From Apostichopus japonicus (lineage: Eukaryota): a stretch of 64,000 nt of DNA. The position numbers were made by a program, and so were the translations under genes. Shown here in pieces: positions 1-64,000 of the stretch (position 1 is the stretch's first letter; every line of letters begins with the position of its first letter). The notes under the pieces were generated by a model, which made no database searches, had not been told where the DNA came from, and saw only the letters and a list, made by a program, of their open reading frames with translations. The stretch lies in the NCBI RefSeq assembly GCF_037975245.1, contig NC_092564.1:11423891-11487890 (forward strand), in the 5' to 3' direction.

Positions 1-155
1 GACTAAGAACTGGGTGAAAACTCAAAGATATTTGTTTTATGATTTGAAGAAAAATTGTCTCAGGCCAAAGCTGTTTACAGCCTAACAAATACAAGTAATT
101 TGTTATATTACTGATTTTGAAATATTGCCTAAATTATTACATAATCTGCTTTCAG

Positions 156-497
156 AACCCTCGTTGTAAGATCTGCAACAGAACTCCAGTAATCAAAAGT
201 TCCGATCATCTTTTCTTGGACCTTCCGAGACTGGAGTCCAGACTTCAGTCATTCCTGGACAAGTCCACAACAGAGGGAGACTGGACCTCCAATGCCAAGA
301 TGATCACATCGTCCTGGATACGAGACGGCCTTAAACCAAGGTGCATCACCAGGGATCTAAAATGGGGAACTCCCGTACCTCTGGAGCCCTACACGGACAA
401 GGTGTTCTATGTATGGTTTGATGCACCCATCGGTTACCCTTCCATTACTGCCAACTACACCCCTGATTGGGAGAAATGGTGGAAGAACCCAGATGAG
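156..497 (+). CDS. MARS1: Methionyl-tRNA synthetase (cytoplasmic), internal exon. Encodes [24 protein letters not shown]...[22 protein letters not shown]...[13 protein letters not shown]...WWKNPDE.
   Basis: Acceptor ctgctttcag|AAC and donor GATGAG|gtaaga. Strong identity to vertebrate MetRS motifs ([21 protein letters not shown]). Phase 0 in, phase 0 out. Confidence 0.9.
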
Positions 498-1068
498 GTA
501 AGAAAATCAGTACCAAAGTAAACCAAACATCAAGCATTAAACTGTGCAGTTTGCAACTGAAAAGGATAATAATTAGAGAAATGAGAGCATCAAGTAATAC
601 ATTGTGGAGTTATTGCAAACAACTTGATAATTATTCTCATGTAAAGAGTCAGCATTTTATAGAATATGAATGGAAAGATCTGGTCAGTTCAACTTTTGAC
701 AATTGAAATAATTCATAATTTTACTTTGACGCACAGTTTAAGGTACACCTATTGCCCCACACAAAGAATAGTAATTTTCCGATCTGACCTTTAATTCAAG
801 TACTTCGTTGTTTTCCTACACTGACTGCTTAGGGTGTACATTGTTTCATCTTCACTGGAAAACTCCAGCTACTTGGCAGTGAGAGTCTGCCATTATGTTC
901 AAAAAGTCTTTAAATATCATTCCTTTCCTTTTCATTGTGTCATGATGTAAAACCATTTTGTACCGACTCAAAACGAGTTTTCTCTGCTTGAAGTGTAAGC
1001 ACGATGAAGTGATAGATTAGTCATTACAATTCTCATTTCCATCTTTGTTTGTGTTATCTCATCATCAG

Positions 1069-1186
1069 GTTCAGCTATACCAGTTTATGGCCAAAGATAA
1101 TGTACCATTCCACAGTGTGGTATTCCCCTGTTCACTTCTAGGCTGCGGAGAGAAGTGGACGTTGGTGAACCATCTGATCGCTACAG
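1069..1186 (+). CDS. MARS1: MetRS exon: [39 protein letters not shown].
   Basis: Acceptor atcatcag|GTT and donor CTACAG|gtaaat. Near-identical to human [23 protein letters not shown]...SHLIAT. Confidence 0.9.
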
Positions 1187-1789
1187 GTAAATTACAATCA
1201 CATAGTGTTACTAAGGAGAGTGGCATTACAAGTTCACCTCTCCTATATCAGTTTCATGCACCCTCATCTGTGGATGGTATTGTAGCAATCTTCCCATGCA
1301 GTCTTTTATAATAGTGGTTCTAGATACTGATTCATCTCAGGTTGTCTGTCTTGACATGTTTGTTTATCAAGACTGACTATAGAAGGTATAAGTAGGGAAA
1401 GATCATATACTCGGTTATGGGCAGATTTTATTAATCTTTTTTTTTTTTTTTTTGTGTCATTGTCACTAATCACTTCTCCTAACAGTAGCCTAGATGTAAA
1501 TATAATACATTATAATAAATATATTACTTAGCCTGATATACAGTACCTACAGTTGTCTTGGCTTATTATTGTCTCGTACTACTGAATTCCCAAACTAGTC
1601 TGGCATGTTATAATGTCTGGAGTTGCTTGCTCCTTGCCTCCTCCAAAGTTGTCTGAAGAACTCATTTTTCTCCAACTAAGCAAATACTAAATAATGAGAT
1701 AAAGATTTATCAGTTGGAAGAGAAGGAGCTTTGCATCATGAACATGATGAACAATGGAAGGCTACATAGAGTGAGTATAAGGCCTACCA

Positions 1790-2600
1790 TTTGTGTGTGA
1801 GGTCAATAAGCCCAAGAGTTCTTAACATTGCAAATATCCTTCTTGTTTCCTTGGCAACAGAGTACCTCAACTATGAGGACTCCCAAGTTTTCACTTTTTG
1901 TGTGTGACGTAGTCAATAAGCCCAAGAGTTCTTAACATTTCAAAAATCCTTCTTGTTTCCTTGGCAACAGAGTACCTCAGCTATGAGGACTCCAAGTTTT
2001 CACTATTTGTGTGTGATGTAGTCAATAAGCCAAAGAGTTCTTAAGATTTCAAATATCCTCTTGTTTCCTTGGCAACAGAGAACCTTAAGTATGAGGATTC
2101 CAAGTGTTCACTATTTGTGTGTGACGTAGTCAAAAAGCCAAAGAGTTCTTGACATTTCAAATATCCTTCTTGTTTCCTTGGCAACAGAGTACCTTAACTA
2201 TGAGGACTCCAAGTTTTCACTATTTGTGTGTGAGGTAGTCAATAAGCCCAAGAGTCCTTAACATTTCAAATATCCTTCTTGTTTCCTTGGTTACAGAGTA
2301 CCTCAGCTATGAGGACTCCAAGTTTTCACCATTTGTGTGTGATGTAGTCAATAAACTAAAGAGTTCTTGACATTTCAAATATCCTACTTGTTTCCTTGGC
2401 AACAGAGTACCTCAACTATGAGGATTCTAAGCTTTCAATAAGCCAAAGAGTTCTTGACATTTCAAATATCTTTCTTGTTCCCTTAGCAACAGAGTACCTT
2501 AACTATATGGACTCCAAGTTTTCACTGTTTGTGTGTGAGGTAGTCAATAAGCCCAAGAGTTCTTAACATTTCAAATATCCTCTTGTTTCCTTGGCAACAG
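1790..2600 (+). repeat. Tandem array, about 109-bp unit, about 7.5 copies. It duplicates the 3' end of MARS1 intron 2 (polypyrimidine tract + AG) plus the first ~35 nt of exon 3. The last copy is the real exon-3 acceptor.
   Basis: ttccttggcaacag AGTACCTCAACTATGAGGACTCCAAGTTTTCAC recurs at 1860, 1970, 2078, 2187, 2296, 2405, 2493 and 2600. In the copies the exon-like part runs into ...TTTGTGTGTGA, an in-frame TGA. Confidence 0.9.
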
Positions 2601-2814
2601 AGTACCTCAACTATGAGGACTCCAAGTTTTCCAAGAGCAGAGGGGTTGGTGTATTTGGCAATCATGCTGAGCAGACAGGAATACCGGCAGACATTTGGCG
2701 GTTCTATCTTCTCTTCATACGACCTGAATCTCAGGATAGCTACTTCAACTGGGATGACTTTGTTCTTAAAAACAACAGTGAACTTCTTAACAACCTCGGA
2801 AACTTTATTAACAG
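2601..2814 (+). CDS. MARS1: MetRS exon: [72 protein letters not shown] (KFSKS-region anticodon-binding part).
   Basis: Acceptor ttggcaacag|AG and donor AACAG|gttaga. Matches human [20 protein letters not shown]...IWRFYLLYIRPEGQDS...[15 protein letters not shown]. Confidence 0.92.
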
Positions 2815-3463
2815 GTTAGAGAGTAAGAGTGCTTTGTTCAGTTGTTAGTAAATATACTCTACTTAAATTAATACAGAAGGAAATATGTTGGTATTAATAC
2901 ACACCAGGATGTTGTGCTTAAACTGTAATAGAGGCTGATAAATATCTCTCTCTGGTTTAGTCCTGAATTTCAGTGATGGATTATCCAATAGAATCAGATG
3001 AAGCAAGTGTATTGGGTTAAGGGCCCGCATGGCCTAGCGGTCTCCATGTGCACTTCCATGCAAGACATAACTTACAGGTTGTGCCTGCATACTGCATTAA
3101 AAGTGCCTTAAGGCTCCAGAAGGTTTCAATTTTGGCACTGCCTGTATCATGTGATCAGCAATGTCACCATGCCTTAAAGAAAGTATTTTTTGTTTGATTT
3201 TACAAAGTTGAGACTCTGTTTTCATTGAAAATTTAATTATGGAAAAGTTAGGTTCTTGGATAGCTTGACAGTCTTTGTATTTTAAAATGCTGCTCTTAAA
3301 GTGATTTTTATGTCTAAAATGAGGAAGTCATTTCACCACCTTTTTTTTTTACCTCAAGGTTTGGCACTTTGCAACAGTTGCATCGTAATTCAAAAATAAT
3401 TGTAAATTGCAGTGTTCAGTCATTTATTGTAAACAGTAATCCTAATTTTTGTTAACTGTTTAG

Positions 3464-3595
3464 GGGTCTCATGTTCTTGGAGAAGAACTTTGGAGGACTT
3501 GTTCAAGAGTTGAAGCTGGAACAGTTGGATTGCCAGCTTTTAGCTGCAGTGAGTCAGGAACTGAAGCAATATGTCAGTCTCCTTGAGAAAGTCAG
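3464..3595 (+). CDS. MARS1: MetRS exon: GLMFLEKNFGGLVQELKLEQLDCQLLAAVSQELKQYVSLLEKV(R).
   Basis: Acceptor ctgtttag|G and donor GTCAG|gtaagc. Frame is continuous with the previous exon (NR|G). Confidence 0.85.
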
Positions 3596-3596
3596 G

Positions 3597-5420
3597 TAAG
3601 CATCACTTTAACATTTGTTTGTATCTATAGTAACCTGTTTATTGTTATATGTGTATGCTATGAAGTACTACTGGGTCTCTCAGTTGCTATGTAACTGTAC
3701 TGAACATAAAGAACTCCTTATGACAACAAAACATGAATGAGCTAATACATAGTAACCTGTTTATTGTTATATGTGTATGCTATGAAGTACTACTGGGTCT
3801 CTCAGTTGGTATGTAACCTTACTGAACATTGACAACTCCTTATGACAACAAAACATGAATGAGCTAATACATAGTAACCTGTTTATTGTTACATGTGTAT
3901 GCTATGAAGTACTACTGGGTCTCTCAGTTGGTATGTAACTGTACTGAACATAAAGAACTCCTTATGACAACAAAACATGAATGTGCTAATACATAGTAAC
4001 CTGTTTATTGTTATATGTGTATGCTATGAAGTACTACTGGGTCTCTCAGTTGGTATGTAACTGTACTGAACATAAAGAACTCCTTATGACAACAAAACAT
4101 GAATGTGCTAATACATAGTAACCTGTTTATTGTTATATGTGTATGCTATGAAGTACTACTGGGTCTCTCAGTTGCTATGTAACTGTACTGAACATAAAGA
4201 ACTCCTTATGACAACAAAACATGAATGTGCTAATACATAGTAACCTGTTTATTGTTATATGTGAATGTTATGAAGTACTACTGGGTCTCTCAGTTGGTAT
4301 GTAACTGTACTGAACATAAAGAACTCCTTATGAAAACAAAACATGAATGTGCTAATACATAGTAACCTGTTTATTGTTATATGTGAATGTTATGAAGTAC
4401 TACTGGGTCTCTCAGTTGGTATGTAACCTAACTGAACATTGACAACTCCTTATGCCAGCATAACATGAATGAGCTAATACATAGTAACCTGTTTATTATT
4501 GTATGTGTATGCTATGAAGTACTACTGGGTCTCTCAGTTGGTATGTAACTGTACTGAACATAAAGAACTCCTTATGACAACAAAACATGAATGTGCTAAT
4601 ACATAGTAACCTGTTTATTGTTATATGTGAATGTTATGAAGTACTACTGGGTCTCTCAGTTGCTATGTAACCTAACTGAACATTGACAACTCCTTATGAC
4701 AGCAAAACATGAATGAGCTAATACATAGTAACCTGTTTATTATTGTATGTGAATGTTATGAAGTACTACTGGGTCTCTCAGTTGGTATGTAACCTAACTG
4801 AACATTGACAACTCCTTATGCCAGCATAACATGAATGAGCTAATACATAGTAACCTGTTTATTATTGTATGTGTATGCTATGAAGTACTACTGGGTCTCT
4901 CAGTTGGTATGTAACTGTACTGAACATAAAGAACTCCTTATGACAACAAAACATGAATGTGCTAATACATAGTAACCTGTTTATTGTTATATGTGAATGT
5001 TATGAAGTACTACTGGGTCTCTCAGTTGCTATGTAACCTAACTGAACATTGACAACTCCTTATGACAGCAAAACATGAATGAGCTAATACATAGTAACCT
5101 GTTTATTATTGTATGTGAATGTTATGAAGTACTACTGGGTCTCTCAGTTGGTATGTAACCTAACTGAACATTGACAACTCCTTATGCCAGCATAACATGA
5201 ATGAGCTAATACATAGTAACCTGTTTATTGTTATATGTGTATGCTATGAAGTACTACTGGGTCTCTCAGTTGGTATGTAACTGTACTGAACATAAAGAAC
5301 TCCTTATGACAACAAAACATGAATGTGCTAATACATAGTAACCTGTTTATTGTTATATGTGAATGTTATGAAGAATTACTGGGTCTCTCAGTTGGTATGT
5401 AACCTTACATTGACAACTCC
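3597..5420 (+). repeat. Minisatellite, about 112-123-bp unit, about 15 copies. A 360-bp higher-order repeat (3 subunit variants) is repeated three times at 4440-5400. It starts right at the exon-4 donor of MARS1.
   Basis: Unit catagtaacctgtttattgttatatgtgtatgctatgaagtactactgggtctctcagttg... Variant subunits (..ccagcataacatg..) recur at 4456, 4816 and 5176. Confidence 0.9.
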
Positions 5421-5579
5421 TTTATGCATACAAACATGAATGAGCATGATGAATGTTTGAGCTCTGCTATGAAGCTAATGCCACAAGCTAAGACATTTCG
5501 TGCTCATGCTTGTTAGTGCAGTTGACAGCTTTAAAACTATCGAATGTAGTCAACAGATATTCTTTGAATTCCTTTTCAG

Positions 5580-5684
5580 GATTAAAGAAGCCTTGAGACA
5601 TGTGCTAAACATCTCACGGCTTGGTAACCAACACATTCAAGTCACACAGCCCTGGGTCCTTGTCAAAGGATCGCCAGAAGAAAA
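5580..5684 (+). CDS. MARS1: MetRS exon: (R)IKEALRHVLNISRLGNQHIQVTQPWVLVKGSPEEK.
   Basis: Acceptor ccttttcag|G and donor GAAAA|gtaaga. Matches human [35 protein letters not shown]. Confidence 0.88.
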
Positions 5685-6112
5685 GTAAGAATGCAAAGTA
5701 TTTGATACAAGTCACATCAAAGACTTGCTAATTGTATATCATGGTGTGAGGAATTTGTTGTTGAAATTGATAATAGTTCACTTTTTCACAAAATGTTAAG
5801 ATTTTTCATAAGATATCTAGGACTAAATATGCTATAAGCATGTAAATTATTAATGTCAGTTATTAGTCCTGCTACCCGCTTTAAATATTTGCTGTTTATG
5901 AAACCGTTGAACAGGTTTAATGATTTGGTGGAAGAAGATGGGGTGTGGAGGGGTGGGGGATGGGGGGTAGTAGGTTAGTGGGGGCAGGGGATTGGGGGGT
6001 AAATGGGGGAAAGGACAGGTAATGAAAGCTCTCCTTATTTTATATTCATCTTCCACTGCACAGTGTATATGGTATGATATGGTGATATTCTAATCTTTTC
6101 TAATCTGCAAAG

Positions 6113-6296
6113 GTCCAGAGCCGGGACGGTTACTTCTCTCTGTGTTAACATCTCCTGCCTCTTGTCCGTCATGCTTCATCCGTACATGCCAGACACGAGT
6201 AAAACCATCCAGGAGCAGCTCAATGCCTCAGCCGATGTTAACGTCCTCACTGGAGACTTTGTTTGTTACCTCGAACCAGGACACAAAATTGGAACG
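6113..6296 (+). CDS. MARS1: MetRS exon: SRAGTVTSLCVNISCLLSVMLHPYMPDTSKTIQEQLNASADVNVLTGDFVCYLEPGHKIGT.
   Basis: Acceptor ctgcaaag|G and donor GGAACG|gtaaag. Matches human [26 protein letters not shown]...LPAGHQIGT. Confidence 0.88.
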
Positions 6297-6839
6297 GTAA
6301 AGAAGAAACCATCATTTTTGCCTTCTGACTTTGTAGTTTATTTCAGGCTCATATTTACAACAAAAAAAGAGCAAATATGACAAGTTTGGGTGTTAGTCTA
6401 GGATGTGTTCAACATGTCAACAGATCTACTATGGTTCCAATGCCAAGTCAGTGGTCAACGCTGTTGCTTGAGTTGTATCAGGGGTTGCTGTTAGTTGACC
6501 ATTTTTGAAAAACACTGACATATCAAGTTACCACTGGGACTTTCAGTGGTTTCAAGTCCTTGTTGTTAATGAGAAGAAAAACTTTATTGTGCCACCTGAA
6601 GATGTTGCAAAATAAAATGTTAGAAACCTTTCTCGTTGGATCTTGGAAAAAAAGCATTTTGACAGAGGTTTATCATTTGGTGTATATAGTATGCCATAAA
6701 GAGGGAGAGGGGTGGGGAGGGAGGGGCCATGTCTACTCTCCTTATCATCATAACTCATCATCTCTAAATCCTCTCTATTTGTTGGTAAGGGCTGGTTCAC
6801 AGCCCGCAATGTTAATTCCTCTTGATGTTTCATTCACAG

Positions 6840-6914
6840 CCAAAACCTCTGTTTGCTAAGATTGAACAAGCTCAGGCAGACCAATTGAGAAACCAATATG
6901 CAGGGAAGAACGAC
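6840..6914 (+). CDS. MARS1: MetRS exon: PKPLFAKIEQAQADQLRNQYAGKND.
   Basis: Acceptor cattcacag|C and donor AACGAC|gtaagt. Matches human [22 protein letters not shown]. Confidence 0.82.
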
Positions 6915-7700
6915 GTAAGTCACGAAGATGAAATAAGATTTATTAAATAATGACATGGAACTCCCTATGAGCCATGTTAATAGCCTAGATGTGCATGTTT
7001 ATATTTATGTGTGCACATATTGGTAGTGGGTGTTCTGCCATACTCCTGTTTATTTTATGCGTGATGATATCTTAGTACCAGGAAATATTAAACTTTTGCA
7101 TGTTACTAGATGTCTGGTAGAAGTAGTGTTTGTTGTTGAAAGTGATATCTTGGCCTTGATATAAAAATAAAATCTGCAGAGGCTTTTTGAATATTTTAAT
7201 TAGTAATTGTTTCTTGATTAATTGTCTCAAGTAATGTGACATCTGAACCAAGGGTTTTGTTGATGAGGTTCGACTAGTTCCACTGAGCCTGTTTCACTGG
7301 GGGCTTGTTTCACTTAGTTTAATTCTGCTACCATTCTCTCCCAAAGGAGACTTGAATGAAATATGTTCAGTCAAAAAATTTCTGTTAATATTGCAATTAT
7401 TTTGGAATGTCAACAGAGCTCAGAAATACTAATTGTATTGATGTAGTCTGTCTTCTTCTTATGTATTTATTATTTTGGTTTCATTTCTATGGACTATTTC
7501 CTCTTACTGTTGGTGAAAGTATTGCTATCCGCTGTTTGACGAAAACAATGATAGCGCAGAGAAAGATCAGTCCATCTTTTCTGGTTAATGAATATTCACG
7601 ATGATTGTAAAATTACGACATGCATGGATTAATTCTGAGATGACCAAGAGTGTTCTTTGTCAGTCTTCATTCTGTGATGCTACCAAATTGTTTTCTGCAG

Positions 7701-7814
7701 AGCACACCAGCTCCTAGTGAGCCTTCAAAGCCAACACCAGAGAAGTCAGCCCCTGCTCCTAAGGATGTTGACCCTGCTGAGGTGGAAAGGCTCACACAGG
7801 AAGTAGCGAAACAG
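7701..7814 (+). CDS. MARS1: MetRS exon, linker: STPAPSEPSKPTPEKSAPAPKDVDPAEVERLTQEVAKQ.
   Basis: Acceptor ttttctgcag|AGC and donor AAACAG|gtaagg. Phase 0 to phase 0. Leads into the WHEP-like exon. Confidence 0.8.
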
Positions 7815-8082
7815 GTAAGGAATTGTTATTTTAGATGTAAGAGGGGAGGGGTGCAGAGGATGCAGTGATTTTGATAAACTCAGTCATTGATTACATTATC
7901 AGAGCTATTCATTTCTTGTACTCATATAACAGTACTTACAAGACAAGCATTTACTTCATTTACTATCCCCTTGGAGGTAAGCATAGTGTTAATTTAAAAA
8001 GTCCATGCCTACAATTCCATTCTCAAGTTGTTTACTTTTTTCCTCGCTATCATCATCTCATTTTGCTTTTTACACGCTACAG

Positions 8083-8461: not shown

Positions 8462-8859
8462 TTTCTTGAGTCAGAATGCTTGAAGCAAAAGATGAATCTT
8501 ACCTAACATCATGCTAAATCAGGTTAAATTTAACTGTATAATTTCTTGTAATTAATGTGTGGGATAATTCATGAAAGTGCCTCAAACTAGAAAAGTAATG
8601 TTTCTAAATTTCACTCTATCAATTTTAACCATGTTCAATGTGGCTGTGTAGTAGTAATATTGCTTTTGGTTAAGTGGTTTACAATTTTTGACTTTCAAAC
8701 ATTGCAGCTATTGTGTCTATCATTGCAAGCTGTACATCTCTATATAAAGTCAGTATGCAAAGTTATGGAACATGTGTGATGTTACGGTATACTGCCATAC
8801 ATCTCAGGGAATTAATTCTTGTTTGTTGTTCGTTTAAAAAGGACCAATTGTTTGGAGTT

Positions 8860-9095
8860 TCTTAAGCTAAGGGGGCGACCACCCCTTGAGCATATTGTTT
8901 TTATGATATCGCTAGTAATTTCAAATAAAAAATGCTTAGATGCAACTTACAAGGCCTGGGAAGTGCCATTTCCAGCGATCGGTCAAAATGTTCTTGTACG
9001 CTTCGCGCCAACTCATGGTGGCACTACGCTGAGATAGCTTGCCTATAGACTTCGCCCTCCCTTGGCAAATTCCTCGCTACACCCCTGGCTACTGA
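8860..9095. mobile_element. Truncated copy of the hAT-like MITE family, opposite orientation to the 52998 copy. It sits in the MARS1 3' flank.
   Basis: 8993-9030 cgcgccaactcatggtggcactacgctgagatag is the reverse complement of 53066-53100 ctatctaagcggagcgccaccatgagttggcgcg. Terminal cgctacacccctggctactg at 9075-9095. The 8862-8915 end is similar to the window end 63945-64000. Confidence 0.6.
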
Positions 9096-47689: not shown

Positions 47690-48433
47690 CTGAATTTTCT
47701 CTTCAAGATCTGTATCAGAATACATACATTCTACTACATAGTTTAAACTCACCTTCTTCCTTTGAAATACCAGCTTTGATTCAAACTCTAATTTCTCTTC
47801 CTCCTCTTGAAAACGGAGCTTGCCAAAACTATCAATATCTGCTGATTCAATTTCTTCCTCGGTCTCCATGGTGAAGTCATACTCTGGAAAGGCAAAGTCT
47901 GAGGATATAGTTCTCTCCCAGACTGGCATCTCCTCAATAACATCTTGTTTCTGGAGGTTACTGCCAAGATAGCTGGACGAATAACTCCCCCCGGAGACTG
48001 CTAGCTTGTGCTGCTGTTGGTGAGGGTCAACAAGACCATGTTGAAATTTCTTAGTATCATTCGATATAAGTCTCTTCTTGGCCGAACTTGTCTTCTGACT
48101 CAAAAGGTTACTACTCAACTGCAATGTGTACCCACTGAGGCTTTCTACCGAACTTGAAGGAGAAAACTTTTGGGTTGGTTTTCGTTTTAATGAAGTTAAT
48201 GACGGACCAAGAAGAAGAGACTTTGAACCTTTGCCACTATCAGAAGTCTTTCTTATGGAGGATTTCTGACCTGTTGAATTTGTTTTCTTTTCACACAAAA
48301 GAGTTGGTTGATATTCCTTGAGTAACTTGTTTTCTGTAGTGGTCTTCTCTTTCCCATGTATCATACTAGATGGTGATGACAGCAAGGATGACCTCAGAAG
48401 TGGGTTGGAGAGGTCTCTGCTCCTCAAATCCAT
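47690..48433 (-). CDS. TEP1: TEP1 first coding exon found (MDLRSRDLSNPLL...DTDLEEKIQ). Ser-rich, diverged N-terminus.
   Basis: 256-aa ORF beginning with ATG at 48433. Donor AAAATTCAG|gtagaa. More 5' coding or UTR exons cannot be excluded. Confidence 0.55.
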
Positions 48434-49004
48434 TTTGGATGTATCTCAAGATTTTCCCTGAATATGGAAAATTACAAATAGAATGTACAATATTAGTGTT
48501 CAAACGATTATGCATAACAGAAAATACCGATTACTGATTATTTTTTTCATAATCGAGTCCGATTCTGATTATTTGAAAATGAGAAAATATCCCGTTTATA
48601 CGAAATTGGCAATAAAGTTTGACAGAAACAGTTATTGTTGTGATTTTCCCCTGTTTCCTTTTGCTTTGTTGTAATACAAGGCTCTAAGGTATCCTTTTGT
48701 ATGTACCAAATTACCTCTGTTTTTCCTGTCTAGACTCTTAAACTCGTCCATCAAGCTTATGGATTTGAATTATGGGTGTTTTAATAAAAAAGATAACTTG
48801 GCCAAAAAAAGTGTAGGCCCGGGCCTACAGTGCTACATACTGGCTACGCCCCTGATAGTTCTAAATTAGGATTAGATCTCTTACTGAAATATCGCTGACC
48901 TAATAAGGTGATCAAGAGTACAAGTTTTATGTAGAAAAAGGGCACATTTTTATCCTGAGGAAAAGTGGGGGGGCACTTGCCCCCTGTGCCCCCCGGTTCC
49001 GCCG

Positions 49005-51864
49005 CCCTTGAAGGTACATGTACAGAGTAGTCTTACTTTTCAACTTCTGATACTTGTAGATACAAAGATAGTCCAGAAATGTCTTTGATACAACTGTAGC
49101 TAGTAAATGTTTAAGTTAGCCTAATAAGAGAAGGCGAGAGCTATCAGACGATTGCCATCTGATGCAAATTTCTCAAGTGTTTTCTCAACTGAAATATTAT
49201 CTGCGTAAACGGGTTCTTAACTACATGTTAAAAAACTGACAAGATCTGATCCTATAGTCTTTTTCGGGGGGTAGAGTGTTGAATGAAACTATCGTGCTAC
49301 ATACTGGCTACGCCCTGATCATATGATATCAGTATCAGCAGATTTTGTTTCCTGTTTAAATTCTTTTACATGTTCTTTTACATAATATATCAGAAAGACA
49401 AACATAGTGCTCTTTTACAAGTTTTCCAGTAGGATGATTCTTGTTTATTGTCCAATGTCTGGACTTTAATACATTTGACGAACTTAACTGATGGACTATA
49501 TAAACTTGAATATTTTGTAATACAGCCAGATATGCAGTGGCCTAAAAACAAATATCGTTATCGCAGTGTATTAGCAGTGTAATAATTATTTATAGGAAGT
49601 GCGTGTCACGTACGATTGCTAGCTTAGCTTCATAACATGCTGTTCGTGCAACAACTTAGGACGACTCATTGCACGAACGTTGTCGACGTTGTTGTGCATA
49701 CAGTTCGTGACATTCCATAGAGTGCGGTTAGGTAGGCAATATGTATTTTATAACGCAGTGGCCAACTGTAGGCTTGTAATTGGCTATATTTAAGCTAAAT
49801 TTAGCTAATTGCATCTGCCAAACTAAGTAAGTAGTTGAATCAGTAGGCGTGAATGTTACTACGATTACAATCGAGTTAACGGAGCTGACGAGTATTCAAG
49901 ATCAAAAGAGCACTGACAAAATACCATGCTAAAAAAAGACAGTTTAAAAAAAAAAAAAATATCGACACTGAAAGGGGGGGAGCGGTCGCTCCCCCTGCTC
50001 CCCCCTGGCTACGTCCCTGATGTGGTCGGAGATTTGTGGGGATTTTAGGTTTTTTTCGCTGGTACTGAAATTGCTTTGTGGAGGCCGTAATTTGCCACGG
50101 GACTTCCCGGTGATTGTGTGGGATTTGATGATTTGATGCGGGATGTGAGAACTGTTTGCGCTATTCGCGCTGCAACTGCAATTCCTAGCTAAAGCAAACA
50201 CATGTCACAATTAATTTTACACAGACACCTGATATAACGAGGGCGATTTTCTTTTATTTCTTTTTTTCTTTTTCGCACTCGTAATTGTGCTTTAGGAGGG
50301 CTTTTTTGCACTTGCGAGGGCGAATCGCCCGTCGTCTCCGCTTATTTCCAACCCTGTCCAGCACATTCATTAATTCGCGGGATTGGTATTGCTGCCATGC
50401 TTACTGTGCTTAATATGAAGTCACTAACCACTAACCACCCTTGAAGGTACATGTACAGAGTAGTCTTACTTTTCAACTTCTGATACTTGTAGATACAAAG
50501 ATAGTCCAGAAATGTCTTTGATACAACTGTAGCTAGTAAATGTTTAAGTTAGCCTAATAAGAGAAGGCGAGAGCTATCAGACGATTGCCATCTGATGCAA
50601 ATTTCTCAAGTGTTTTCTCAACTGAAATATTATCTGCGTAAACGGGTTCTTAACTACATGTTAAAAAACTGACAAGATCTGATCCTATAGTCTTTTTCGG
50701 GGGGTAGAGTGTTGAATGAAACTATCGTGCTACATACTGGCTACGCCCTGATCATATGATATCAGTATCAGCAGATTTTGTTTCCTGTTTAAATTCTTTT
50801 ACATGTTCTTTTACATAATATATCAGAAAGACAAACATAGTGCTCTTTTACAAGTTTTCCAGTAGGATGATTCTTGTTTATTGTCCAATGTCTGGACTTT
50901 AATACATTTGACGAACTTAACTGATGGACTATATAAACTTGAATATTTTGTAATACAGCCAGATATGCAGTGGCCTAAAAACAAATATCGTTATCGCAGT
51001 GTATTAGCAGTGTAATAATTATTTATAGGAAGTGCGTGTCACGTACGATTGCTAGCTTAGCTTCATAACATGCTGTTCGTGCAACAACTTAGGACGACTC
51101 ATTGCACGAACGTTGTCGACGTTGTTGTGCATACAGTTCGTGACATTCCATAGAGTGCGGTTAGGTAGGCAATATGTATTTTATAACGCAGTGGCCAACT
51201 GTAGGCTTGTAATTGGCTATATTTAAGCTAAATTTAGCTAATTGCATCTGCCAAACTAAGTAAGTAGTTGAATCAGTAGGCGTGAATGTTACTACGATTA
51301 CAATCGAGTTAACGGAGCTGACGAGTATTCAAGATCAAAAGAGCACTGACAAAATACCATGCTAAAAAAAGACAGTTTAAAAAAAAAAAAAATATCGACA
51401 CTGAAAGGGGGGGAGCGGTCGCTCCCCCTGCTCCCCCCTGGCTACGTCCCTGATGTGGTCGGAGATTTGTGGGGATTTTAGGTTTTTTTCGCTGGTACTG
51501 AAATTGCTTTGTGGAGGCCGTAATTTGCCACGGGACTTCCCGGTGATTGTGTGGGATTTGATGATTTGATGCGGGATGTGAGAACTGTTTGCGCTATTCG
51601 CGCTGCAACTGCAATTCCTAGCTAAAGCAAACACATGTCACAATTAATTTTACACAGACACCTGATATAACGAGGGCGATTTTCTTTTATTTCTTTTTTT
51701 CTTTTTCGCACTCGTAATTGTGCTTTAGGAGGGCTTTTTTGCACTTGCGAGGGCGAATCGCCCGTCGTCTCCGCTTATTTCCAACCCTGTCCAGCACATT
51801 CATTAATTCGCGGGATTGGTATTGCTGCCATGCTTACTGTGCTTAATATGAAGTCACTAACCAC
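49005..51864. repeat. Tandem segmental duplication of 1433 bp x 2 (49005-50437 and 50438-51864), nearly identical copies. The junction lies in a 7-bp direct microhomology (ctaacca ctaacca).
   Basis: Identical 85-aa ORFs at 49944-50201 and 51377-51634. cccttgaaggtacatgtacagag restarts at 50438. Each unit holds G-run/ggctacgcc MITE-end-like motifs, an A14 run and a CpG-rich segment. Confidence 0.9.
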
Positions 51865-52997
51865 GAGGGAAGCAAAATCGGCGACCCTGGCAGCCTAATT
51901 TGATAAAATAACATTGTGAAAGACGTATAGAGGGTGTCTTTATTATAATATTTCGTAGTTAAAGAACAAACCTTATACATCAGTTGATATTTTCAACTTC
52001 CACATGTTTTTGAATGATGATATTTTCACCTTCCATATGTTTTTGAATAATCGGTATGACATAACTGGTATTCCACGTAATTTTTACCGATTCTGATTAT
52101 GTTCCGATTATGCAATAATCTTACCGATTCCGATTAGGTTAATCGTTTGAACACTATACAATATATACATAGAATTAGGTGAACATTATATATATTAGAG
52201 CCTTTGAAAATAAAATGAAAATGACATAAAATGAACTAGGCAGAATTTACTCATATCAAAACTAGTAGTTAGTTAATTAACAACTAGCACAAGGTTAGGC
52301 TAGACCTACTTGCAGCATACCTCTGCAATGACATCTTGTTTTTCAGAATGCTGATAGGCCTACTGAAATTTTACACACCTACCTGTACAATGTTACAGAA
52401 TGACTCCAGAATATTTTGTAGGTAGCCTATTAAATCAAATAGGCCTACATGTTTTCAAACACAATTATTTAATGACATCCCTCGTTATGTAGATGAATCC
52501 CCTCACCATGGGTAGCTTGGAATGGAAATTAGCTTGTTGATCTGTAGTACACTGTATAAGTATACAGCTTGCCTTGGTGGATTCGGGTGTACAGTGTAGC
52601 TTAAATACACAATTACACGTACAGTACATAAGATTAGGCCTAGGCTGGGTAAACATGCACGAACTCACATATCAGTCACCATGTTTAAAGTAATGATTAA
52701 TCTATTATCTGAATTAAATATATTCGATTGCAATACCTGTCGAATTATGTTAGTTAACAGCTTCAGTTTGCATCAGTAGCTTTGTAAAGGCGTCTTACAA
52801 TGAATTCGCCCACAACGTTCCGTTCCGGGGCCCAAACACACACTGCACAGGTATGCGGTTGCCATGATAATGTGCAATACCATGGTGTCTGAAAAGAAGT
52901 ACGATTGCGACATTCCCTGCAATCATCAGGGAGGATATCCGATCACGGATCAGTCTCTGGTTTAGTAGGGAGGGGTACTTCCCTGGTATTCATTACC

Positions 52998-54192
52998 CAG
53001 TGGCGTAGCCAGGAACTTTTCAGTGGGGAGGGGGCGCTGGGGGCTTGACCATTTCTGGGAGGGCGTCTTGTTACTATCTAAGCGGAGCGCCACCATGAGT
53101 TGGCGCGCAGGCCTCTTACGGATCGTCGGAAATGACACTTCCCGGGCCTTGCAGGCAGGGGCGTCAATCCGATTTGAAACTTGGGGGGACGTAATCGATT
53201 CGAGTATTCCGGCCGCAAGTACTATCTAAGCGGAGCGCCACCATCAGTTGGCGCGCAGCGTATCAATAAAATTTCAGATTTCAATACCTGCCAGATCGCT
53301 GGAGATGGCACTTGCCAGGCTGGATAGCGGCCATCTAGTTGCGTGATTTCGGGAGAAAATTACAAATTCGTCACTCAGGAGTCAGGAAATCTGCAATAAA
53401 GTTCATGCGGCCTTAATTTTTACGGAATATGCTCCCTATTTCATTTCCCCAATATTAGGGGACGGGCACCGTTTTTGCCATCATCTACAACTAAACAACA
53501 AATATATACGGCTTTGGCTCTAGCTATGAAGTGCCATGACTTCTTGAACTAGTTTTTGGCTCCGGCCGCACCATTATCCGCACACAACTTGTGGTTTCAA
53601 TCTCAAATTTCGCTCGTCGCGACGCACAGACAAAGTTGCAGGTCATACCGATGTGAAAACTCTCGGTCACTTTTCATAGAACTGACTAACCAAGTAGAGC
53701 GACGACACTGAAATGTGTGTGTGTGTGTGTGTGTTGGGGGGGGGGGGGGGACATTTGATAGTGTGTCCCATCCATCGAAATATGTGGGACGTGTCCCCCC
53801 GCCCCCCCCCCCCCCAGGATTGACGCCCATGCTTGTAAGCTGCTCTAAAGTTTCCTCAACATCCCTCTGAAACATTATTAGGGTGATAGACTGATTCTCA
53901 GCGATAGTGTTGTCTCCTTTCTTGAAAATTTGACTGTTTTAAGAGCATCGGGGTACGTCCCAGAAGTGAAAACCCGGCCTATGCGCTATGTCACGTCCGG
54001 TTTTTCAGCAACTATAGCCTACTGCCTGTCTGCGGTCGCAGGGTCGTTCATGCAATTGGAGTGATCATCATGGAGATTCGAGACCATTCAGACCAATGAT
54101 ATATTTTTCACCCAAAATCCCAGTGGGGCGACTGGGGGCGACAAGCTTTCATGGGGGCTGTCACCCCCACGCCCCCCTTGGCTACGCCACTG
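52998..54192. mobile_element. Non-autonomous hAT-like element (MITE), 1195 bp, with 13-15-bp TIRs CAGTGGCGTAGCC / GGCTACGCCACTG and a perfect 8-bp TSD TCATTACC.
   Basis: TSD copies at 52990-52997 and 54193-54200. TIRs start with CAG. Subterminal G-runs. An internal direct repeat (ctatctaagcggagcgccaccatSagttggcgcgcag at 53066 and 53224). No transposase ORF. Confidence 0.8.
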
Positions 54193-55832
54193 TCATTACC
54201 TTGTCAATTTCAAATGTTCCAGAATAGGAGATAGCTACGGTTATACTATAATAACACGTTTGGAGTAAATTATGTACACCGTACCCCGCATGCTGCAGCT
54301 GGGCAAGCACCACAGATTCACTGCATATGTTGTGGCAGCGCTAACAAAAATTGTTCACGACAGTAACACTAATTTAATATATAATAAGTAGCCTGATTAC
54401 TACTGAATGTACATTTGGGAACGCAAGTTATCCAAGTAGGCCTATAAGCCTGAGTTTAAAATTTTTTGCGAAGTCTGTTTTAAATATGTCTCCCCCCAGA
54501 ATGCAACATATTTGATGTCTAATTTTTTATACTCCCACTGAGACCCCGACACAGGAAATCGCTTCCCCGCCTCATTTTAAAAATCCTGGTCTCTCCCTTA
54601 ATTTGATCAAACTGCACAAAACGTCAATTAAGAACGGCCTGACTTATGAAGTTATTACACAATATTTCTTTCCTGTATCGCCTAATGTAAATTGCTGTTA
54701 CATGGTGACTTCAGGCAGGATCGCAAAAAAACCTAATTATTATACTTATAGGCGTAGGAGCCCAATTTGATTTTTTTGGGGGGGGGGGGCTGTAACGACG
54801 TCTCTGAAAAATATAACCAACATTTTTCGCGCACTCAGCGCGCGTTCAACATGTTAATGTACATATCATATAGGCATGCATTGGTTACTACATCGCAAGC
54901 CATCGTGTACCGTATAGTCCATGAAAGTTGCGCAGTATCATGCCAATGTAAACAACGAACTGTCTTATGCAGATGAAGAAAAAGCATGGAGGGCCAATTA
55001 TGTCAAAACTCTCTTTTACATTGTAGCAATGGCGAATCAGTCGGGCAAGTTTAGAACTTTATTTTAATAACCAAGATTTTTTTAAACTATTGATTTCCTT
55101 TAGCTACATCAATGCAATTTATTTTTCTTCCAGTAGGTGCCCGAATAATTCTCAGCATATTGCCCGAAATTTCACCAGCCCCCACCCCTACGCCGCCTAC
55201 CACCGCCTCCTACGCCTGTGATTATACTGAAGGTACGCATGTTTTACGCATTAAAAGAAACCTATGCATTTAAAAGAATCCTTAAGTCATATGTTGCCAG
55301 CAATGATTCGTTAAGTAACAATGATACAATATTTATTCAAACCGGTAAGCCCTCCAAATTTCGCTATAAATTGTATAATGCGCCGTTAAAGTTACCAGTA
55401 TCTAATTAACGTTAATGTTTTACTGTTCTCCTTTTCTTTTCTAGATTGTTTGACATTCTTTTTGTAAACGTGCAAATAGTTATACTCCTTTTGAATATAG
55501 CGAAATGTAATGAAATAAGTTACACAATATAGATTAGCCTACTGTAAAGAGTTTCCTTCCCTCACCTGCTGGGACCCAGTTTTTTTTACAATTGTATAGT
55601 AGCCCACGTATACATTTGTTCCCATGTAGGCTTCTGTCAGGAAGAGACATGAGATACAGCCCCGGTGCCGGAGTCAATACTAGGGGCGGTAAAATACGCA
55701 GTGGCGCGAGAAAAAATATTGGGCCTGAAGAATATTGCATTCTTACTTTCGTAATAAACGAAAAACAAAAAATGAAGAGTGCAGACATCGGTTACTGTGA
55801 TATAACTGTGTGTTCGGATCTCGTTCTGAGCC

Positions 55833-56194
55833 CAGGGGCGTAGCGAGCGGGGGGGGGGGTGTGGGGGTGTCACACCCCCCCCCAATAATTTGGTCGCTGT
55901 CGGCAAATTTTGGGTCTGTCGGCAAAAGGAGAAAAGGTGAAGAGAGCGGAAGGGGAAGAAAGAAGGAAAGCTGAATAGAGAAAAGGAGAACGGGAGCTTC
56001 TTCCGTGCCAAATTTGACTTAAAATATGCACCAGATTGCATCTAAGGACGTTTCAAAACTAAAAATTTTCCAAAGGGGAGGGGTAGACCCCCTACCCTTA
56101 GACCCCTCCCCCATTTCAGTCACCACTTCCCGATCCGTCGGCAAATCAAATTCTCCACACCCCCCCCCACAAAAACCCCTTCGCTACGCCCCTG
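55833..56194. mobile_element. Second hAT-like MITE of the same family, 362 bp, with TIRs CAGGGGCGTAGCG / CGCTACGCCCCTG and a perfect 8-bp TSD TCTGAGCC.
   Basis: TSD copies at 55825-55832 and 56195-56202. Subterminal palindromic G/C runs (gggggtgtcacaccccc). Confidence 0.8.
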
Positions 56195-56679
56195 TCTGAG
56201 CCTGTCTGCTCTGCTCGTTTCACTCATGTCATGTGCATCACATGAATCAAAATGACGATATTGGGTTGATTGGTTTGGCCAGAGAGGGGAGGGGGGGGGG
56301 TTGGTTGGTTAGGTGAGGTGGAAATTTATCAGAGTTTAGCTACCGTGTTTTCCCTCTAGCGACTGGATTGTTTCAGACAGCCTAATAGTAGTTTCAAATG
56401 ATGTGCCGTATAGCATAAGGAAATATTCCATGTCGTAATGAGAAAAGGATAGAATTCAATACATAGGCTGACGTATTCATCCTGACATTTGTATTTTGTA
56501 AAACCAAATGAATGACTAAGAATGATATTTCATTCTATAGGATGCACAATTCTCATCTGACAAATGTGTCATGTATTTTGCACACATGTCGGTTAATTAG
56601 TCTTGTCTGTACCGTTTGTGCATGCGTTGTCGTAATACTCGGTATAGGCCGATAATAATAATATTTATAAATGTTTATA

Positions 56680-56691
<12 letters not shown>

Positions 56692-56749
<58 letters not shown>

Positions 56750-62700: not shown

Positions 62701-62751
62701 TGTGGGGATACAGCGCCGAGGCTTACACAACGAAGGGCGATGTTTGGTACA

Positions 62752-62805
62752 GTGGCACACCGTGGCACACCGTGGCACACCGTGGCACACCGTGGCACAC
62801 CGTGA
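62752..62805. repeat. 10-bp tandem repeat (CACCGTGGCA) x 5.
   Basis: Read in sequence. Confidence 0.9.
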
Positions 62806-63494
62806 CATATATATGCATTCAATATCGTCTATGTAATTATATTTATATTTTGTGTTGTTGTTATTTTTATTATGTGTGTTTTGTAAAGATGCTGTTATTT
62901 CTATGATTTACTTCATGATGTGTTTTGCCCTTGACCGTGATTTTCGAAGCACAATGAAATTGAATAATTTTCCTTTTACTCGCATTGTATAGGCTAAGTT
63001 TCGAAATGTTTTGTTAAAATTGATTAAATTTAGTAGTTATTACTAGTAATTAAATTATGAACTTAATAAATGTATACAAAACCGAACGAACGTTTTCATA
63101 TGCGAATGTGAATGGTTGAGATTTAAATCTCAAATAAATCATCAAGATAAAAAATATATAAGAAAAGTTCTAGTTTCTATATGATATCATGCATGTTATA
63201 GGCTACACCTCTGGGAAAGCAATACTTTCAAAACAAGCTAAGTAGCATATTGATTTAATTGCGTCCTGCAGGACAGAATAATGTCCTTATAGAAGGATTG
63301 AGATTGCGCTATTTTTACTTACACGTTCATTCATCTCGTTGTCGATAACATTAACCGCAGGCGACCCTCGGCGAAGTGTTTGACGATGATAAAGGAAATA
63401 TATGCATACTGTGGATGTGTGTATTCACGCCTAAGCTCTGCAATTGTGATAACAGGTGCGTATCCAGGGGGGCGTTGGGGGCGCGCGCCCCCCG

Positions 63495-63650
63495 GGTAAG
63501 GAAAAGAGGAGAGAAAAAGAGAAGAAAAAGGGAAAAGGAGGGGAAAAAGAGGAGGAGGAGAGGAAGGAAGGGAAAAGAAGAAGAAGAAAAAAGAGAGAAA
63601 AAGGAGAAAAGGAGGGAGTAGAAGATAGCCAAGACTTCGGGAAGAGAAAG
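63495..63650 (+). repeat. About 150-bp polypurine (GA-rich) tract on the + strand, a mirror-repeat-rich potential H-DNA/triplex former.
   Basis: Almost exclusively A/G from ggtaaggaaaagaggagag... to ...ggagggagtagaag. Confidence 0.85.
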
Positions 63651-64000
63651 AGGAACAGTCATAGTTAAAGCGCTGATCCCTATTATATACACAGGGTAGC
63701 CAGTGACAAATCAAGGATTACGGGGGGAGGGGTGTGCGCCTCACCCTACCCCTTACACCGACAACTCCATTTTTGACGTTTCCATGTTCCTCTCTTACTA
63801 ATGTATCTATATAAATACTATATATGGTCTATCATAACGCGTGTGTGTGTATGGATGCCTAAAACAATTGTACAATTGTGCTATATGGAACCAACTGTGG
63901 CTGGTCTTGAACTCGACGGGGTCGTCGGGAGCATGACGCATTTCGGGAAGGGGGCGACCGCCCCCCCCCGAGCAAATTTTCTTTATGACATCGCTAGTAA

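Follow-up and report, generated by a model that had tools for sequence, protein, structure and literature searches.

Three Intact Insertions in a 64-kb Window

[quoted passage not shown] Each is bounded by terminal inverted repeats (TIRs) and flanked by a perfect 8-bp target site duplication (TSD). A first-pass annotation had described two intact copies, at 52998-54192 and 55833-56194, and its coordinates, perfect 8-bp TSDs and CAG-initiated TIRs proved exact for both; a third, at 54747-55220, had been overlooked. Together the three insertions occupy 2031 of the 3213 bases (~63%) of the interval, and the window as a whole carries about eight more ends or fragments besides these three intact copies. 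The features of the interval are as follows.

52990-52997, no strand assigned: TSD of element 1, left copy, TCATTACC
52998-54192, minus strand: element 1, 1195 bp, non-coding; end A at 52998, end B with hairpin at 54192
54193-54200, no strand assigned: TSD of element 1, right copy, TCATTACC
54739-54746, no strand assigned: TSD of element 3, left copy, ATTATACT
54747-55220, no strand assigned: element 3, 474 bp, intact; related subfamily with the GGCGTAG core
55221-55228, no strand assigned: TSD of element 3, right copy, ATTATACT
55825-55832, no strand assigned: TSD of element 2, left copy, TCTGAGCC
55833-56194, plus strand: element 2, 362 bp, non-coding; end B at 55833, the other end at 56194
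56195-56202, no strand assigned: TSD of element 2, right copy, TCTGAGCC

Element 1 terminates in CAGTGGCGTAGCC at 52998 and GGCTACGCCACTG at 54192, which form a perfect TIR of 13-14 nt that was both read directly in the sequence and returned by a script scan. The 52998 terminus (CAGTGGCGTAGCCAGGAAC...) is of the type that we designate end A, and the 54192 terminus (CAGTGGCGTAGCCAAGGGGGG, followed by a hairpin) is of the type designated end B; the minus strand was assigned by analogy, with end B as the 5′ end in transposase-bearing relatives. Element 2 carries the CAGGGGCGTAGCGA terminus at both ends as a 14-bp TIR: its end B at 55833 reads CAGGGGCGTAGCGAGC followed by the hairpin G11TGTGGGGGTGTCACAC9, its right end reads TCGCTACGCCCCTG at 56194, and its interior is purine-rich. 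The termini of element 3, TATAGGCGTAGGAG and CACAGGCGTAGGAG, agree at 12 of 14 positions, with two transitions among its four terminal bases, and share the GGCGTAG core with elements 1 and 2; CATAGGCGTAGCC variants among the partner ends found in metagenome contigs (below) tie element 3 to the group formed by the other two. The CAG/CTG ends of the window elements (CAGTG... and CAGGG...) are of the YARNG type, a 5-nt motif common across hAT.

The 362-bp and 474-bp elements are small and non-coding and have TIRs and a TSD, as is usual for MITEs. Element 1 is on the long side for a MITE, and the term non-autonomous element, with an internal duplication, suits it better. In its interior, 148 bp are duplicated in tandem (53072/53220), and there are also a run of (TG)n and, at 53712-53817, a palindrome of the form G16...C15; the element may be a composite or rearranged copy. 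At 53712-53817 the (TG)n run is followed by G16 ACATTTGATAGTGTGTCCC...GGGACGTGTCCCCCCGC15, a palindrome resembling that of end B with no adjoining TIR.

We searched all 197 stop-to-stop open reading frames (ORFs) that the window contains at a length of 65 aa or more against Pfam and found no transposase domain, the only matches being domains of the methionyl-tRNA synthetase (MetRS) and TEP1-like genes; a tblastn search of the window with Tip100-like proteins was likewise without a match. The elements are therefore non-autonomous. Neither an Rfam scan nor a tRNA scan gave a match in the window, indicating that the elements are not derived from SINEs or tRNAs. A resemblance to a tRNA 5′ end (GGGGCGTAGCTCAG) was rejected, since the motif is inverted at both ends and flanked by TSDs. 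A link to RAG/Transib, considered because element 2 contains ACAAAAACC and element 3 starts with CACAG, was also set aside, since the TSD here measures 8 bp rather than 5 bp and the linkage of the ends is to hAT.

The structures were compared with shuffled sequence. A scan for an exact 8-bp direct repeat abutting a 12-nt inverted repeat with at most one mismatch found three structures in the window and none in each of 20 shuffles. A relaxed scan (14 nt, up to three mismatches) found eight in the window versus about one per shuffle, among which the four with 0-2 mismatches stand out, namely, elements 1, 2 and 3 and an unrelated structure at 48494-52156. The end motif itself is enriched 7-10 fold in the window: CAGKGGCGTAGC with up to two mismatches occurs 15 times versus 2.0 expected, and the core GGCGTAG 10 times versus 1.05 expected. 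The three perfect TSDs amount to 48 unmutated bases, from which the divergence since insertion is roughly <6% (0.94^48 ~0.05). The first-pass annotation had taken the perfect TSDs as a sign of fairly recent mobility; they set only this upper bound.

The Same Ends in Metagenome Contigs

To define the termini outside the window, we inferred a consensus end, CAGKGGCGTAGCCAGGGGG, from the window ends (CCCCCTGGCTACGCCMCTG as the scan pattern) and used it as a probe of public metagenome contigs. The scan returned at least 120 contigs from more than 40 samples; these and the other related contigs examined are labelled L with a number here. Two related contigs, L001 and L002, lack the motif. Their GC contents of 28-57% are eukaryote-like, and their long ORFs encode animal-type families (SIX1, homeobox, plectin, HSF and the rhodopsin-type receptors, 7tm_1); no transposase domain, including those of P, Merlin and MULE, was found in the ORFs of the 120 listed contigs (386 kb). 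In nearly all of these contigs, the flanking sequence switches exactly at the C of CAG, which identifies this position as the true terminus. The exception is a subfamily (L006, L011, L062, L069, L071, L081, L085, L097, L099 and L113-L115) in which at least 40 nt are conserved before the CAGTGGCGTAGCC end (...gcataacttgaagcaaactt...tctgtcttgaaga), so that the MITE end is there embedded in a larger repeat that has multiplied in its own right.

We paired inverted ends lying within 6 kb of each other and obtained 47 candidate pairs among the matches listed. A perfect 8-bp TSD flanks 15 of the 47, and about 10 more have one mismatch under looser pairing; other TSD lengths were 5 bp (five pairs) and 4, 6 and 7 bp (one each). 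The partner ends, which had not been selected by the search pattern, read CAGGGGCGTAGCCAGGA(A/T)TT, revealing a TIR of ~16 nt (range ~12-16 bp) past which the two ends diverge. More than 100 independent ends among the matches listed give the consensus CAGKGGCGTAGCCAGG, which bears out the TIRs proposed in the first-pass annotation.

The likeness is confined to the termini. A conserved internal motif of element 1 (GCCACCATSAGTTGGCGCG...GGARATGRCACTT) gave 0 matches in the metagenome contigs; the element interiors are lineage-specific. In the full-text literature, the TIR strings matched nothing but primers, by chance.

Linkage of the Ends to hAT Transposase Sequence

A tblastn search of all retrieved DNA with the C-terminal 250 aa of Tip100 and its plant relatives gave two meaningful matches. 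The first, L025, is a complete 545-bp element with a degenerate, frameshifted hATC remnant (LPVAVATAERSF...MKRIKTTLRNS...) that points to end A. In the second, L090, end B and its hairpin are followed ~370 bp on by an intact C-terminal (last) exon (GTLPVTTCESERVFSKL...), which matches Pfam Dimer_Tnp_hAT at 29.5 bits (cut-off 21.4). This exon has 11 relatives in the protein database, and we inspected their source contigs. L123 contains a DUF4371 ORF and a Dimer_Tnp_hAT ORF, with end A (...AGATTCCTGGCTACGCCGCTG) 394 bp past the stop codon, and L131 contains a Dimer_Tnp_hAT ORF with end A (...AAAATCCTGCCTACGCCACTG) 294 bp past the stop codon. In L128, a 475-aa DUF4371 ORF is directly followed by a 109-aa hATC ORF, and the contig ends before either terminus; a comparison of this transposase with PDB sequences returned no relative. 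The left ends of the transposase-bearing copies in L123 and L128 were not found within the available sequence.

Thus, four contigs (L025, L090, L123 and L131) place the ends beside hAT C-terminal coding sequence in a consistent orientation, the transposase reading from end B to end A, as in Tip100. The ends are physically linked to hAT transposase coding sequence; this linkage is direct though incomplete. As a separate observation, the DUF4371 and hATC ORFs of L123 lie 7.4 kb apart, and a chromodomain ORF (L123:5818-6171) in the gap suggests a retroelement insertion into that transposon copy.

Asymmetric Ends and a Subterminal Hairpin

The two ends of the family differ beyond the TIR. At end B, a G-run...C-run hairpin directly follows the TIR, whereas end A continues as GGAATTT/GGATTT; element 1 shows this layout exactly (end A, 52998; end B, 54192). 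The first-pass annotation had assigned subterminal G/C palindromes to both of its copies, and they are present in both, but at one end of each only. To examine the hairpin, we folded the 50 nt past the TIR for 110 end-B sequences and compared them with shuffles. The median z-score was -2.0, with half of the sequences below -2, and the stem nearly always begins at the G-run right after CCA. The inner stem varies by subfamily yet stays complementary (GGGGGACATG/CATGTCCCCC, GGGGGGTTCCAG/CTGGAACCCCCC and GGGTGGGCG/CGCCCACCC). Of the window ends, those on the right of element 1 (z = -3.6) and on the left of element 2 (z = -3.4) fold well, whereas the opposite ends of these elements and both ends of element 3 fold no better than shuffles.

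In one subfamily, with end B GGGGGGTCCTGGGGTGCCCGTGA and the same TIR, the ~140-180 bp copies have perfect 5-bp TSDs (L013:1286-1456, L026:244-421, L058:684-857 and L094:1606-1767, also L082:189-327); a 248-bp copy of this subfamily at L014:446-693 has an 8-bp TSD. The Repbase 'hAT5' group is a possible precedent for TSDs of 5 bp.

The hairpin abutting the TIR at end B keeps its pairing while the sequence changes across dozens of subfamilies and hosts. Rather than a mere peculiarity of sequence, it could serve animal Tip100-like hAT transposons in structural recognition, for instance as a cruciform or a single-strand hairpin in synapsis or end discrimination, and would then matter for recognition by the transposase. 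A second part of the same proposal is that the 5-bp rather than 8-bp staggered cut points to a variant of the transposase whose target spacing is altered, or else to a second enzyme that cross-mobilises the elements. We regard the two parts, taken jointly, as a tentative suggestion that is more probably wrong than right. Both the covarying hairpin beside one TIR and the 5-bp TSD subfamily come from the related contigs, and both are mildly unusual.

Comparison with Tip100 and Other hAT Systems

Tip100, of Ipomoea purpurea, belongs to the Tip family of the hAT superfamily (Habu et al. 1998, as cited in PMC12511174 and PMC3942097) and has the 11-bp TIR CAGGGGCGGAG and 8-bp TSDs (PMC12511174). Its 3′ end is given as ...GGTTAATCCTGGCTCCGCCCCTG in a supplementary figure of the medaka Tip100 paper (PMC12511174), with CAGGGGCGGAGCCAGGATTA as the terminal 20 nt. 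We read the same 3′ end in Ipomoea nil genomic DNA (CAGGGGCGGAGCCAGGATTAACCAATGCGGGGCC), where both of two Tip100 copies are 5′-truncated.

The Tip100 TIR and the CAGGGGCGTAG of the present elements are alike at 10 of 11 positions, position 9 being T here rather than G. Of the terminal 20 nt of the Tip100 3′ end, 19 agree with end A of the animal elements, CAGGGGCGTAGCCAGGATT(T/A), if either A or T is allowed at the 20th position, and 18 agree with the exact animal end-A string CAGGGGCGTAGCCAGGATTT. In both systems a G-run follows the 3′ terminal 20 nt and the TSD is 8 bp. The distance from the transposase C-terminus (hAT dimerisation motif) to the end is 117 bp in Tip100, 294 bp in L131 and 394 bp in L123. 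The differences are those of size and host: Tip100, from a plant, is autonomous, spans 3.8 kb and encodes a transposase of 808 aa, while the window elements are 362-1195 bp, non-coding and animal.

Among animals, Tip-family elements (BuT2 and the BuT2-MITEs of Drosophila, AeTip100-2 and hAT-12_HM; PMC3942097) have 12-bp TIRs and 8-bp TSDs. By description, these elements resemble those reported here in belonging to the third (Tip) hAT group and in having short non-autonomous copies that are deletion-derived or retain only the TIRs (PMC3942097). Unlike them, the MITEs of the window share only their termini with transposase-bearing relatives and form no internal deletion series in the window. The hAT MITEs and Ds-like elements of the Ac/Ds, hobo and Hermes groups are alike in their short YARNG TIRs, their 8-bp TSDs and their need for subterminal sequences in cis and a transposase in trans; they differ in TIR sequence, which is closest to Tip100 here, and in the conserved hairpin that abuts one TIR of the present elements.

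Target sites were compared for the 18 perfect TSDs of the window and the listed contigs. T occupies position 2 in 9 of 18 and A occupies position 7 in 8 of 18, at most a weak nTnnnnAn tendency with no clear target consensus. A central TA, the Buster signature, was found in 1 of the 18.

Classification, Mechanism, and Alternatives

Based on the termini, the TSDs and the linked coding sequence, the interval very probably contains three separate insertions of non-autonomous hAT-superfamily MITEs, accompanied in the window by decayed copies and solo ends, with a Tip100-like group as the most likely classification judged from the sequence of the ends. The first-pass annotation had already read the copies as non-autonomous hAT elements, which the absence of a transposase from the window and the occurrence of the same ends elsewhere, with 8-bp TSDs and beside hAT domains, bear out. 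Its suggestion that the family may be unclassified does not hold, as the ends classify it as Tip100-like.

The elements hold only the sequences required in cis, namely the TIRs and the asymmetric subterminal regions. By established hAT biology, a Tip100-like transposase encoded elsewhere in the genome would bind the TIRs and subterminal sites as a dimer or oligomer, excise the element and integrate it at an 8-bp staggered cut, the repair of which would yield the 8-bp TSD. By this analogy, the window elements were presumably mobilised by such a transposase.

Several observations weigh against this assignment. The window encodes no transposase, and neither it nor the other contigs yielded an autonomous copy that combines both ends, an intact ORF and a TSD. 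The L128 transposase shares only 27-34% identity with plant Tip100-like proteins, in short blocks, so that the placement in the Tip group relies mainly on the DNA ends and not on a protein tree. The element interiors have no counterpart in the sampled contigs, where the termini alone match. When we joined the flanks of each element and searched the window, no paralogous empty site was found. Finally, one subfamily outside the window combines the same TIR with 5-bp TSDs, and the 8-bp TSDs lack a clear target consensus.

The strongest alternative, though an unlikely one, is that these are hAT MITEs outside the Tip100 group, with an end likeness that is convergent or widespread in hAT and a partner transposase of the Buster or Ac type. 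The linked animal transposases match the DUF4371 and FAM200-ZBED5 RNase-like models, which also cover Buster-derived proteins; their low identity to plant Tip100-like proteins, together with the weak Ac-like tendency of the TSD (T at position 2, A at position 7), is in line with such a partner. On the other hand, the agreement with Tip100 extends over 19 of 20 contiguous terminal bases (20th open; 18 of 20 versus CAGGGGCGTAGCCAGGATTT) and includes the following G-run, far exceeding the 5-nt YARNG motif, the central TA expected of a Buster element is confined to a single TSD, and the remnants in L025 and L090 were themselves found with Tip100 C-terminal sequence.

Mobilisation by another superfamily with a TSD of about 8 bp (P, Merlin, Mutator-like, Zisupton or Novosib) rather than by a hAT enzyme is less probable still. 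It is well established that an 8-bp TSD is not by itself unique to hAT, the window has no autonomous partner, and the 5-bp TSDs of the related subfamily indicate that TSD length is not rigid in the group. Against this possibility, the termini obey the hAT YARNG rule and agree with the Tip100 TIR at 10 of 11 positions, and the 386 kb of listed end-bearing contigs contain no P, Merlin or MULE domain. A link of the ends to a THAP/P-type transposase, as in the P superfamily, was not found; they adjoin Dimer_Tnp_hAT/DUF4371 coding sequence instead, in four independent contigs and in consistent orientation.

That the inverted and direct repeats are chance or local duplication artefacts can be dismissed for practical purposes: each subfamily has just one intact copy in the window and a perfect 1427-bp tandem duplication nearby shows that local duplication or assembly error occurs here, but comparable structures were absent from 20 shuffles (about one per shuffle only at three mismatches), and one and the same end of 16-19 nt turns up in at least 120 unrelated contigs, where the flanks differ and 8-bp TSDs occur.

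With the Tip100-like hAT assignment, the basic picture is unchanged: the elements are a normal, ordinary repeat family. In annotation, they should be masked under the label DNA/hAT (Tip100-like) and not be kept as unclassified repeats. Over the terminal 16-20 nt, a morning-glory transposon and the MITEs of many animal-derived contigs are nearly the same, which suggests strong constraint on the recognition of the ends by the transposase and allows the consensus end to serve as an inexpensive, specific probe for such transposons. Tip100 is under development as a transgenesis vector (PMC12511174), and the asymmetric ends with their covarying hairpin offer that work a concrete, testable hypothesis.

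Decayed Copies, Solo Ends, and Fragments

Beyond the interval, the window contains the following related sequences.

8845-9087, plus strand: decayed copy; end-A terminus CAGGGGTGTAGCGAGGAATTT reading on the minus strand from 9087; left boundary approximate
48843-48854, minus strand: solo end, perfect 12-mer GCTACGCCCCTG with its terminus at 48854; no partner end found
49306-49317, minus strand: solo end with a 1-nt deletion, GGCTACGCCCTG, of the same end type as at 48854
50007-50019, minus strand: solo end-B type terminus, CAGGGACGTAGCCAGGGGGGAGCAGGGGGAGCGACCGCTCCCCCCC in minus-strand reading
50739-50750 and 51440-51452: duplicate solo ends, copies of 49306-49317 and 50007-50019
63453-63692, plus strand: truncated element-2 type copy, in which CAGGTGCGTATCCAGGGGGGCGTTGGGGGCGCGCGCCCCCC leads into a purine-rich stretch
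63940-64000, no strand assigned: fragment that carries the palindrome GGGGGCGACCGCCCCCCCCC and is truncated at the window edge

The interior of the decayed copy at 8845-9087 is ~75% identical to the segment duplicated in the left part of element 1 (53072 and 53220). It retains the end-B palindrome GGGGGCGACCACCCC at ~8872-8886, next to which the TIR is degenerate, and has no TSD. At 63453, the end (CAGGTGCGTATCCAGGGGGG) is followed by a palindrome and then by the purine-rich stretch that resembles element 2; no right end was found for this copy, and another degenerate end-like sequence begins near 63693. The fragment at 63940-64000 shares 81% identity with 8869-8918, and no TIR can be recognised in it.

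The fragments listed in the first-pass annotation are real, with boundaries displaced by 0-10 nt for the solo ends. Its 8860-9095 is the decayed copy whose terminus lies at 9087, and its 48843-48855 is the perfect end that terminates at 48854. The ends it placed at 49303-49314 and 49997-50009 lie at 49306-49317 and 50007-50019, while for 63900-64000 the relationship to 8869-8918 stands without a TIR. The list was incomplete, the ends at 63453, 50739-50750 and 51440-51452 having been left out.

The solo ends at 50739-50750 and 51440-51452 arise because 49005-50431 is repeated without any difference at 50438-51864. This 1427-bp tandem repeat (period 1433, 100% identity, with TAACCA at the junction) reflects a duplication of very recent date or else an artefact of the assembly.

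Purine-rich (GGAGAAAAG)-like stretches lie at 55930-55990 in element 2 and at 63490-63650 in the truncated copy at 63453, and are weakly similar to 44968-45130 as well as to interior sequence of L043, L067 and L108.

Neighbouring Genes and Other Repeats

The methionyl-tRNA synthetase gene, with a WHEP-TRS domain, occupies the left edge of the window on the plus strand (99-8000); the best protein-database identity of a MetRS exon is 76-80%. A TEP1-like gene (telomerase-associated protein 1) lies on the minus strand with recognisable exons at ~22000-44100, encoding TROVE, DUF4062 and DUF5920 domains, a NACHT-type ATPase, an APAF1_C-like helical domain and WD40 exons; the MITE cluster is upstream of this gene. 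A 256-aa ORF on the minus strand at 47663-48433 has no Pfam match and no exact counterpart in an identity look-up.

The unrelated structure returned by the relaxed scan is a separate transposon-like element:

48494-52156: 3663 bp, TSD TACAATAT at 48486-48493 and 52157-52164

It has a perfect 17-bp TIR (TAGTGTTCAAACGATTA), a perfect 8-bp TSD and subterminal CCGATT/AATCGG repeats, and looks like another hAT element of a different family. Its interior lacks a transposase ORF and contains solo GGCGTAGC-type ends. The remaining simple repeats are an (AT)n microsatellite of ~85 bp at 56661-56747 and a 10-bp tandem repeat, (ACCGTGGCAC)n, with ~7 units at 62739-62817.

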